This document shows positions 3,926 through 7,207 of a stretch of DNA of 53,359 nucleotides, in pieces. Each line of letters begins with the position of its first letter. Positions within the stretch are counted from its first letter, which is position 1. This DNA is from Candidatus Wildermuthbacteria bacterium RIFCSPHIGHO2_01_FULL_48_27b (GTDB lineage Bacteria > Patescibacteriota > Minisyncoccia > Minisyncoccales > UBA10102). Location: assembly GCA_001824915.1 (NCBI GenBank), contig MHTS01000027.1, forward strand, positions 1-53,359. The letters are read 5' to 3'. The notes under the pieces were generated by a model, which searched no databases, had not been told where the DNA came from, and saw only the letters and a program-made list of their open reading frames with translations. Position numbers and translations under genes: made by a program.

Positions 3926-3963
3926 AAAAAAACGGGTTCATTCTTCCCACGAAGAATGAACCC
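3926..3963 (-). terminator. rho-independent terminator after the 54-aa gene
   Basis: On the minus strand: GGGTTCATTCTTC-GTGG-GAAGAATGAACCC, a 13-bp stem followed by a run of seven T. Confidence 0.8.
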
Positions 3964-4427: not shown

Positions 4428-4503
4428 TGGTGAGGCGAGTCGGATTCGAACCGACACCTACGGCCCCTCAAGCCGTCGCTCGTGCCAAACGAGCTATCGC
4501 CTC
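4428..4503 (-). tRNA. tRNA with anticodon GAG (Leu by anticodon) but a class I body with a 4-nt variable loop; CCA encoded
   Basis: Hand-folded cloverleaf: GAGGCGA-TA-GCTC-GTTTGGCAC-GAGC-G-ACGGC-TTGAGGG-GCCGT-AGGT-GTCGG-TTCGAAT-CCGAC-TCGCCTC-A-CCA. It has the T-loop TTCGAAT, GG in the D-loop, G37 and A73. Position 14 is G, which is unusual. Confidence 0.8.
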
Positions 4504-5890: not shown

Positions 5891-6937
5891 CTAGACGACG
5901 GCCTGCGCTGCAGGCACCTCGTCTGGCATGCGGCGGCCCAGGGCGCCGGCGACGGCGCGGACGCCCTTCATCAGATCGTTGAAGTTCTCGAACGTGAGCG
6001 ACTGCGCGCCGTCGCTCCACGCCGTGTCCGGGTTCGGGTGGACCTCAATGATCAGGCCGTGCGCGCCCGCCGCCACCGCAGCCAGGGCCATTGGCTTCAC
6101 CAGGTACCACTTCCCCGTCCCGTGGCTCGGGTCCGCGATGACCGGCAGGTGGCTCAGCTTCTTGATCACCGGGATCGCCGTCAGGTCCAGCGTGTTGCGC
6201 GTGCCCGTCTCGAAGGTACGGATGCCGCGCTCGCAGAGGATGACGTTGGGGTTGCCGCCCGCCAGGATGTACTCCGCACACAGCAGCCACTCCTCGTACG
6301 TCGTGGCGAAGCCGCGCTTGAGCAGCACTGGGCGCTGCACCTTGCCCACCCGATCCAGCAGTGGGTAGTTCTGGATGTTCCGCGCGCCGATCTGCAGGAT
6401 GTCGGCGTACTCCGCGACGGTCTCGACCTCCTCCGTGGACATCACCTCGGTGATGATCGGCAGCCCGGTCTCCTCGCGCGCCTTGGCCAGCATCCTCAGG
6501 CCGGTCACGCCATGGCCCCGGAAGGAGTACGGCGATGTCCGCGGCTTGTACGCCCCGCCACGCATGATCATCGCGCCCGCCGCCTTGATCGCCTTGGCCG
6601 TGGTGATAACCTGCTCCTCCGACTCCACGGCGCACGGCCCGGCCATCACGACCACTTGGTCTGACCCGATGGCCACGTTGCCGACCCTGACGATAGTGCT
6701 CTCCGGCTTGAACTCCCGGCTGCCGAGTTTGTACTGCTTGGTAACCCGCAGCACCTCGCTGACTCCACGCAAGAGCTCAAGCTCATCCTTGAGCTCCGGC
6801 ACGATGCGTCCCTCGACGCCGATGATCGTGCGCTCCACGCCGACACTGATGTGAGGCTTATAACCTCGCCCGTCGATGTATGCCGCCACACACTCGATAT
6901 CCTTCTTGGTTGAATCCTGCTTCATCACCACGATCAT
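5891..6937 (-). CDS. aroF: 3-deoxy-7-phosphoheptulonate (DAHP) synthase, class I-beta, with N-terminal ferredoxin-like regulatory domain
   Basis: 348 aa. Motifs: [59 protein letters not shown] and PVIADPSHG. The N-terminal 70 aa resemble the Thermotoga-type FL regulatory domain. Strongly GC-rich, with a GAAGGAG SD. Confidence 0.9.
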
Positions 6938-7017: not shown

Positions 7018-7047
7018 AAAAAACGAAAGCCAGCCTCGTCGGCTGGG
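7018..7047 (-). terminator. attenuator terminator in the DAHP synthase leader
   Basis: Minus-strand RNA reads CCAGCC-GACGA-GGCUGG followed by CUUUCGUUUUUU. AUCGUCGGC inside the leader ORF (plus strand 7111-7119) is complementary to GCCGACGA, which forms the 5' arm and loop of the terminator. Confidence 0.6.
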
Positions 7048-7087
7048 AATCTAGTATCTTTTGCTTATTGTTTTTCTTTCTCGTTAC

Positions 7088-7171
7088 CTATTTTTGGATA
7101 CTAAAATTATGCCGACGATTTTGGCTAGTAAAAGTAAAATACCAAAAGGAATATCTCAACTGTAAACTCAT
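7088..7171 (-). CDS. candidate leader peptide rich in all three aromatic residues (MSLQLRYSFWYFTFTSQNRRHNFSIQK)
   Basis: 27-codon ORF whose ATG lies 7 nt after a TAAGAA(T) -10 box, so effectively leaderless. Six of eight consecutive residues are Tyr/Phe/Trp (YSFWYFTF). A terminator lies about 40 nt after its stop. Confidence 0.55.
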   Translation of the reverse strand: MSLQLRYSFWYFTFTSQNRRHNFSIQK

Positions 7172-7178
7172 GGTTTTA

Positions 7179-7207
7179 TTCTTATACCTTTCAAAGCAAG
7201 TTGTCAA
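7179..7207 (-). promoter_or_regulatory. promoter TTGACA-17-TAAGAA for the DAHP synthase leader
   Basis: Read on the minus strand, immediately after the pheA hairpin. An alternative -10, TATAAG, would give a 15-nt spacer. Confidence 0.45.

Follow-up and report, generated by a model that had tools for sequence, protein, structure and literature searches.

A putative aromatic leader-peptide attenuator upstream of a DAHP synthase gene in a Candidate Phyla Radiation bacterium

The aroR-aroF attenuator of Corynebacterium glutamicum, reportedly described by Neshat et al. in 2014, is the closest specific precedent for the element considered here, a short open reading frame (ORF) rich in aromatic codons that precedes the gene for a DAHP synthase (DAHPS) in Candidatus Wildermuthbacteria bacterium RIFCSPHIGHO2_01_FULL_48_27b, a member of the Candidate Phyla Radiation (CPR, Patescibacteria). 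The stretch analysed, called the window below, comprises positions 1 to 53,359 of contig MHTS01000027.1. Both loci carry a mixed-aromatic leader peptide directly upstream of a DAHP synthase gene. Two published accounts state that stalling on the aroR leader (Phe-Tyr-Phe), located before aroF, raises transcription under Phe limitation (PMC11802643, PMC4046766); in one of them only Phe limitation is reported to be effective (PMC11802643). Mixed aromatic leaders before DAHPS, as aroR illustrates, are not unprecedented. The present locus differs in its host (CPR rather than Actinobacteria) and in its aromatic block, which has a greater length (6 of 8 codons) and, by containing Trp, covers all three end products. 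The resemblance is functional and taken from published descriptions; aroR is an analogue and not a shown relative.

With the enterobacterial pheL-pheA and trpL-trp systems the locus shares an ORF of cognate codons, a 2:3 antiterminator opposed to a 3:4 terminator and an intrinsic terminator placed before the gene. It differs from them by its mixed codons, by a probably leaderless start lacking a Shine-Dalgarno (SD) sequence, and by an antiterminator made of three segments with a 38-nt loop. The Rfam families Phe_leader and Trp_leader do not match the aromatic leader. T-box leaders also couple aromatic-pathway genes to tRNA charging through a terminator/antiterminator alternative, as at the DAHPS locus L061. 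T-boxes sense uncharged tRNA directly and carry a conserved T-box sequence and a specifier loop. Neither of these (RF00230) is present in the aromatic leader.

On sequence grounds, we consider it likely, with a probability of about 0.8, that the element is a ribosome-mediated attenuator of DAHPS that senses the charging of the Phe, Tyr and Trp tRNAs. It would apparently be the first leader-peptide attenuator described in the CPR, a literature search having found no paper linking leader-peptide attenuation to this radiation.

The leader ORF and its alternative RNA folds

The features of the leader and of the gene behind it are the following.
7207-7202 and 7183-7178, minus strand: sigma-70-type promoter found by promoter scan, TTGACA and AAGAAT with an 18-nt spacer, the same in both haplotypes (see below)
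7171-7088, minus strand: leader ORF of 27 sense codons (ATG 7171-7169, TAG 7090-7088), MSLQLRYSFWYFTFTSQNRRHNFSIQK
7153-7130, minus strand: aromatic block YSFWYFTF, codons 7-14 (3 Phe, 2 Tyr, 1 Trp)
7128-7097, minus strand: antiterminator 5' strands, all inside codons 15-25, directly behind the aromatic block
7058-7050, minus strand: 3' strand of antiterminator helix c, GAUACUAGA, the nucleating helix, transcribed before the terminator
7046-7030, minus strand: terminator hairpin CCAGCC-GACGA-GGCUGG, -11.5 kcal/mol, with a 6-bp stem including 5 G-C pairs
7029-7018, minus strand: interrupted U-tract CTTTCGTTTTTT (RNA CUUUCGUUUUUU), which reads UUUUCGUUUUUU in haplotype B
6951-6945, minus strand: SD sequence GAAGGAG before DAHPS
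6937-5891, minus strand: type I-beta DAHP synthase, ATG at 6937 (Pfam PF18152 and PF00793), with an N-terminal ferredoxin-like domain

The succession of promoter, SD-less ORF, hairpin with U-tract, SD sequence and gene is the canonical order and spacing of an attenuator. An earlier note, made from the letters of the window, had proposed the promoter, ORF and terminator among them. Its ORF of 27 codons is present, with the translation exactly MSLQLRYSFWYFTFTSQNRRHNFSIQK, and six of eight consecutive codons specify Phe, Tyr or Trp, all three types being represented upstream of DAHPS as it had stated. Its promoter is retained for the TTGACA hexamer; the promoter scan prefers an 18-nt spacer with AAGAAT over the proposed 17-nt spacer with TAAGAA. 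Under either choice the ATG follows the -10 element by 6-7 nt (6 nt with AAGAAT) and no SD sequence precedes it, which makes a leaderless or near-leaderless start the natural reading. Streptomyces and Corynebacterium provide documented cases of leader peptides read from leaderless mRNAs (PMC8079986, PMC5784534).

Dense aromatic clusters are rare in this DNA. A six-frame scan of the window located only 7 loci with at least 6 aromatic codons out of 8, two of them being the present ORF and the Phe leader of pheA. From this background, the chance of finding such a cluster on the right strand of a given 260-nt leader is estimated at about 0.01, and a binomial estimate based on composition gives about the same value.

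The terminator hairpin and U-tract that had been claimed are found at 7046-7018. However, both minimum free energy and ensemble folds of the leader yield a long interrupted helix, the antiterminator, and not the terminator. This antiterminator consists of three helices totalling about 22 bp, with an energy of approximately -29 kcal/mol compared with -11.5 kcal/mol for the terminator. In helix a, (C)UAGCC(A) at 7128-7122 pairs with the 3' arm of the terminator. Helix b joins UCGUCGGC (7118-7111) to GCCGACGA (7043-7036), that is, to the 5' arm and loop of the terminator, over 8 bp. Helix c joins UUUAGUAUC (7105-7097) to GAUACUAGA (7058-7050) and appears at a transcript length of 122. The internal spacer is an A-rich, unstructured loop of 38 nt. 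The pairing between ORF and terminator that the earlier note had described is therefore real, at 8 bp, except that its leading A remains unpaired; the antiterminator exists as well, as a three-helix structure rather than the single helix of 8-9 bp that had been envisaged. Compared with dinucleotide shuffles, the 238-nt leader folds with z = -5.07, much of which is supplied by two hairpins located farther downstream (7009-6956); for the 161 nt at 7175-7015, from just before the ATG to just past the U-tract, z = -2.17. No Rfam family, T-box included, matches 7207-6938 at E-values up to 10. The T-box model did work in this setting, scoring 130 bits at L061, whose DAHPS gene is controlled by a T-box.

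The effect of a translating ribosome was mimicked by imposing a 28-nt unpairable stretch during ensemble folding of the transcript. With the A-site at codons 3-12 or 14, the probability of the terminator is 0.00 and that of helix b 0.99-1.00. The terminator probability is 0.17 at codon 13 and 0.04 at codon 15, then reaches 0.98-0.99 at codons 16-24, where helix b falls to 0.00. The computed flip is located just after the last aromatic codon, which in this model is the geometry required of a leader-peptide attenuator. The earlier note had made its proposal depend on folding energetics, and the computed energies do back a terminator/antiterminator alternative, with a switch point at the end of the aromatic block.

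In the mechanism that we propose, transcription would start at or next to the leader ATG and a ribosome would load on the leaderless message. If charged tRNA-Phe, tRNA-Tyr or tRNA-Trp were scarce, the ribosome would stall within codons 7-14 with its footprint ending before nt 54, and the 5' strands in codons 15-25 would stay free. Helix c would form first and zip into helices b and a, using up both arms of the terminator as well as its loop, and RNA polymerase would read through into DAHPS. With all three aromatic tRNAs charged, the ribosome would cover codons 16-28 while the polymerase makes nt 126-154; the 5' strands being covered, the 6-bp GC hairpin and the U-tract would form and transcription would stop at about 7018.

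Conservation and folding in a second population

A second groundwater population, referred to as haplotype B (L088, L089, L006, L092 and L095), carries a DAHPS 84% identical to that of the window. Contigs L001-L005 and L090 have a leader identical to the window copy and consequently give no comparative information. The haplotype B ORF encodes MSSQLRYSFWYFTFTGQNRRQNFSIQK; promoter, ATG, frame, stop codon and the block YSFWYFTF are unchanged, which answers in the affirmative whether the aromatic cluster is conserved in a homologous leader, another point on which the earlier note had let its proposal depend. The leader transcripts are 91.6% identical, differing at 13 of 154 nt. Of these differences, 7 fall in the other 57 sense-codon bases of the ORF (4 synonymous, 3 nonsynonymous) and none in the aromatic block. 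All 6 terminator pairs are identical. Of the 22-23 antiterminator pairs, 18-19 are the same in both haplotypes and 2 more persist with a change on one side only (U-G to C-G and A-U to G-U). In a sliding comparison the leader stands out as an island of 90-95% identity. On one side the PDT (prephenate dehydratase) proteins share 38% identity and their gene is essentially unalignable; on the other, identity is 45-65% over the initial 130 nt of the DAHPS ORF.

In the same model, the haplotype B leader also folds in a ribosome-dependent manner. Its free RNA shows a terminator probability of 0.67. The value is 0.00 with the A-site at codons 7-11, does not exceed 0.04 at codons 12 and 14, is 0.43 at codon 13, and lies at 0.91-1.00 from codon 16 through the stop codon. 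In addition, haplotype B can form an anti-antiterminator of the 1:2 type, a feature shared with the pheL and trpL attenuators, in which the region of the aromatic codons pairs with the 5' strands of helices a-c. This structure is worth -15 to -17 kcal/mol and is formed by transcript length 95, before helix c is possible. In the window, substitutions at nt 16, 46 and 63 each break one of its pairs and that at nt 45 weakens one. As modelled, haplotype B looks like a complete four-region attenuator and the window haplotype resembles a two-state form that is probably leakier. Unlike pheL and trpL, the window copy has no stable 1:2 hairpin, and its untranslated RNA is predicted to show readthrough and not super-attenuation.

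Several observations weigh against an attenuator at this locus, or against its efficiency. We infer transcription start, ORF translation, stalling and termination from the sequence. The U-tract of the terminator is interrupted, and the -10 element AAGAAT is the weakest among those of the four similar modules present in the window. The anti-antiterminator is nearly absent from the window haplotype (-1.2 kcal/mol compared with -15.1 kcal/mol in haplotype B), from which the readthrough of untranslated RNA is predicted. A ribosome placed on the stop codon of the window haplotype masks only helix c; at equilibrium helices a and b are then favoured (P = 0.97) and close a 67-nt loop that contains the ribosome. 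Termination would thus depend on kinetics or on steric exclusion of the ribosome-containing loop, and the model suggests that the window copy may be leaky. The comparison rests on two haplotypes only in the collections searched. Two antiterminator pairs are lost in haplotype B, one at the end of helix b and the other a U-G pair in helix c, which re-registers to 8 bp; no pair shows two-sided compensation, hence covariation support is weak. The DAHPS gene is visibly mosaic between the populations, and the high identity of the leader could in part reflect recent recombination instead of constraint.

Finally, in haplotype-B contig L092 (JGI Ga0209211_10068937) the aromatic leader precedes a 71-aa ORF in place of DAHPS. 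A 230-nt segment (686-915) exactly replaces the DAHPS ORF, the limits of the exchange being 18 nt upstream of the ATG and 8 nt downstream of the stop codon, and the leader is intact. The segment carries its own SD sequence and the ORF (MVAVISPEIVGRNVKFIIGG...) has no Pfam hit. A search of metagenome contigs with a pattern combining helix b and the terminator returned only haplotype-B contigs L092 and L095 plus four chance matches (L093, L094, L096 and L097), rejected as lying inside GC-rich coding DNA.

Neighbouring modules and alternative explanations

The features surrounding the aromatic leader include hairpins and, on the same strand within 4.2 kb, three further modules composed of a promoter, a short SD-less ORF and a terminator.
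8380-8198, minus strand: Phe leader before pheA, with FFFFAFF (MKYSASKDFFFFAFFTPSLRLGDLK)
8099-7266, minus strand: prephenate dehydratase (PDT and ACT domains; pheA)
7254-7217, minus strand: GC-rich hairpin with a GAAA loop, directly 3' of the pheA stop codon and without a proper U-tract
7009-6956, minus strand: two hairpins between the terminator and the SD sequence of DAHPS, about 93% identical in haplotype B
5343-5152, minus strand: Ile/Val/Leu leader, with promoter TTGACA-17-TATATT, ORF 5301-5200 MRQNLANQIQNIMIVLVVLLGITKPLNLAGRNL (IMIVLVVLLGI) and terminator 5176-5152
4412-4249, minus strand: Ile leader, with promoter TTGACA-16-TATCAT preceded by an upstream TG, and terminator 4272-4249

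The ATGs of these neighbouring module ORFs lie at most 14 nt from the -10 element. The pheA leader matches the Rfam Phe_leader family (RF01859) over 8330-8194 at 40.5 bits, the only hit to this family in the region and short of its gathering score of 55. Identity with the L088 copy of this leader is 87-98%, although the PDT proteins encoded behind it are only 38% identical, pointing to a xenologous replacement precise to the ORF. The Ile/Val/Leu module is 97% identical to that of L088. A GC-rich ORF of 97 aa without Pfam hit (4811-4518) is found 3' of it, and at that place L088 encodes a non-homologous, stand-alone LeuA_dimer-domain protein. The Ile leader ORF (4372-4301), MQKASLAIEIISIINPTKREAFC, includes AIEIISII, where 5 of 7 codons specify Ile. 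Behind this module come an SD sequence and a GC-rich ORF of 54 aa (4158-3994), also without Pfam hit. A tRNA-Leu(GAG) gene (4428-4503, minus strand) is situated between the ORF downstream of the Ile/Val/Leu module and the promoter of the Ile leader.

Each of the four modules stands out as a conserved island when the two populations are compared. None of them can therefore be put down to chance, and the set implies that the organism uses attenuation systematically. The argument that the earlier note drew from the adjacent pheA leader is thereby strengthened, by the Phe_leader match below gathering score and by the two additional modules downstream. A fifth leader, suggested by FFYPQFFY at 3932, was rejected since this string derives from the T-tract of a terminator at 3963-3934.

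The hairpin at 7254-7217 is probably the end, or a stabiliser, of the pheA transcript, and shows compensatory changes in the L088 copy. In the window this GATCGAAAGATC-centred hairpin precedes the aromatic leader promoter only; in L088 (660-700), an equivalent GATCGAAAGATC-centred hairpin, with CCCCAAYCTATTGACA after it, occurs upstream of the Phe leader promoter as well as of the aromatic one. The combination of the GATCGAAAGATC hairpin with CCCAAYCTATTTGACA was considered as a repeated genomic module and rejected, no repeat being found in the window. The two hairpins at 7009-6956 are formed by a 10-bp inverted repeat, UUUCGAGAGU/GACUUUCGAAA (7009-6978), and by CUGGC/GCCAG (6977-6956). They play no part in the attenuator model and could serve as an operator, in RNA processing or stability, or as a second layer of control. 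A sigma-54 reading of TGGCAC at 6976-6971 was rejected because no TTGC follows it.

Three other explanations can be weighed against ribosome-mediated attenuation. The one that survives best, improbable as we judge it to be, retains a real terminator/antiterminator switch but attributes its setting to an RNA-binding protein, an uncharged tRNA or a small ligand, the aromatic ORF being incidental. The alternative folds are indeed well supported by themselves, the hairpins at 7009-6956 have no role when a ribosome sets the switch, and the T-box before DAHPS in L061 indicates that other RNA mechanisms act on this gene family. Against this stand the lack of any Rfam match within the limits given above, T-box included, and an A-rich 38-nt loop showing no sign of a ligand pocket. 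Nor does the sequence, as read, carry (G/U)AG repeats at the regular spacing of TRAP targets, those considered being rejected for their irregular spacing. An incidental ORF also fails to account for the conservation of aromatic block, frame and stop codon, for a switch point that coincides with the end of the block, and for three neighbouring modules that obey the same cognate-codon logic.

Slightly less probable still is an independent small gene, in which promoter, ORF and terminator would produce a 27-aa peptide or a small RNA of about 154 nt and DAHPS would be transcribed from a downstream promoter of its own. A TTGACT hexamer (6990-6985) does occur downstream of the terminator, but no acceptable -10 element is found 15-18 nt after it and the promoter scan reports nothing there. 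The conservation of the 7009-6956 region and the persistence of the leader in L092 in the absence of DAHPS would also fit such a gene. However, the peptide is too short, and its ends too polar, to resemble a membrane or secreted peptide; 3 of its 27 residues differ between the haplotypes and none of these is in the regulatory block. An independent gene would also leave unexplained the exact placement, just behind the aromatic codons, of the 5' strands that can pair with the terminator.

Least likely of the three is that the ORF is a chance product of a spacer whose T-rich composition (37% G+C) favours TTT, TAT and TTC codons, as in the spurious FFYPQFFY of the T-tract at 3932, and that hairpin and U-tract are simply the pheA terminator: clusters are expected at a rate of only about 0.01 in such a leader, pheA is already followed by a hairpin of its own (7254-7217), a good -35 element lies between pheA and the ORF, ORF and block are kept in the diverged haplotype, and three more leader-like modules lie alongside.

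Gene origin, leaders in other phyla and regulatory significance

The DAHPS encoded behind the leader aligns over its full length with the type I-beta enzyme of Thermotoga maritima (1RZM; E = 9e-110). It is 100% identical to OHA63718.1, from a Candidatus Wildermuthbacteria metagenome-assembled genome (MAG) of Rifle-type groundwater. Fourteen contigs from several samples carry DAHPS with the same flanks, which indicates that the arrangement is not an assembly artefact. The spacer between PDT and DAHPS is 328 nt long, with 37% G+C and a T-rich composition. No gene is called in it on any contig, and the leader ORF is therefore probably absent from protein collections.

The G+C content is 66% in DAHPS and about 44% in the host; it ranges from 57 to 68% across the DAHPS and PDT genes and from 37 to 43% in the intergenic leaders. 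The nearest relatives of DAHPS are a gene from Rokubacteria (82% identity, L007) and genes from Chloroflexi (approximately 70%). When the protein was compared with genome contigs, Chloroflexi, Firmicutes and other relatives showed at most 73% identity and no second CPR species was found. The Rokubacteria homologue is preceded by a GC-rich region of 145 nt without leader, which implies that the leader did not arrive with the DAHPS gene. Together, the contrast in G+C, the relatives and this leaderless homologue argue that DAHPS was horizontally acquired and that the AT-rich leader is of host type. Both DAHPS and PDT appear to have entered this CPR genome recently, by horizontal transfer.

The loci obtained by scanning genome contigs for DAHPS were reused as a background set for a survey of leaders, in which 400 nt of upstream sequence was scanned at each of 78 further I-beta DAHPS genes in the genome collection. 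A short sense-strand ORF with at least 5 aromatic codons in 8 was detected at 6 of the 78 loci, and with at least 6 in 8 at 4 of them (2 and 0, respectively, in the antisense control). Candidates belong to Syntrophales (L066, L060), Thermodesulfovibrionales (L081, L084), Clostridia (L082), a Chloroflexi MAG (L065) and an unclassified MAG (L074). The aromatic clusters include YWSFGFYYY and YYFSKYYF in Syntrophales, FSFSYFTFWRGYFF in Thermodesulfovibrionales, WRFYFYYF, FYFYWGFYFF in Geosporobacter and WGFYF in Chloroflexi. Most of these ORFs are followed by a hairpin and a U-tract, and the ATG of the L081 leader lies about 5 nt after the -10 element. They match no Rfam family, no sequence similarity to the CPR leader was detected, and a literature search, including the delta-proteobacteria, found no description of them. 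An equilibrium footprint test revealed a terminator dependent on ribosome position in only 2 of 7 (L081 and L060), for which reason the leaders of other phyla remain candidates.

In L081, L084, L066, L060 and L074, a (U)CUGCCCAUCG-like sequence is found at the 3' end of the ORF, complementary to the first terminator arm CCAUGGGYAGA, and all five have tandem terminators. Judged by their sequences, these leaders possibly constitute an undescribed RNA family.

Back in the window, the four promoter-leader-terminator modules are 87-98% identical between the two populations and the ORFs between them are not; the flanking peptidase and MetRS translations are nearly identical, as judged by eye. The ORF exchanges comprise a PDT that is a xenologue at 38% identity, a mosaic DAHPS, the replacement of DAHPS from SD sequence to stop codon in L092, and a non-homologous cargo behind the Ile/Val/Leu leader. 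A tentative interpretation, which we regard as possible but doubtful, is that the leader modules are conserved regulatory sockets within which horizontally acquired coding sequences are exchanged ORF for ORF. If so, attenuators in a genome-reduced symbiont would be portable amino-acid-starvation switches that outlive the genes they control.

CPR bacteria are usually portrayed as minimal in biosynthesis and poor in regulation. Here GC-rich, acquired genes of the aromatic pathway sit behind AT-rich attenuators of host style, with four modules in a row. The interest of the locus lies in its host lineage, in a three-amino-acid sensor at the entry of a pathway, in the battery of four attenuators, and in leaders that are more conserved than the ORFs they control. 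If the proposed attenuation mechanism is true, transcription-translation coupling, and through it the sensing of tRNA charging, would operate in the CPR, and all three end products could gate the entry step of the shikimate pathway by means of a single peptide. Similar unannotated aromatic leaders may then control I-beta DAHPS in several other phyla, and short ORFs of cognate codons would offer a simple marker to predict which acquired genes uncultured organisms really use.

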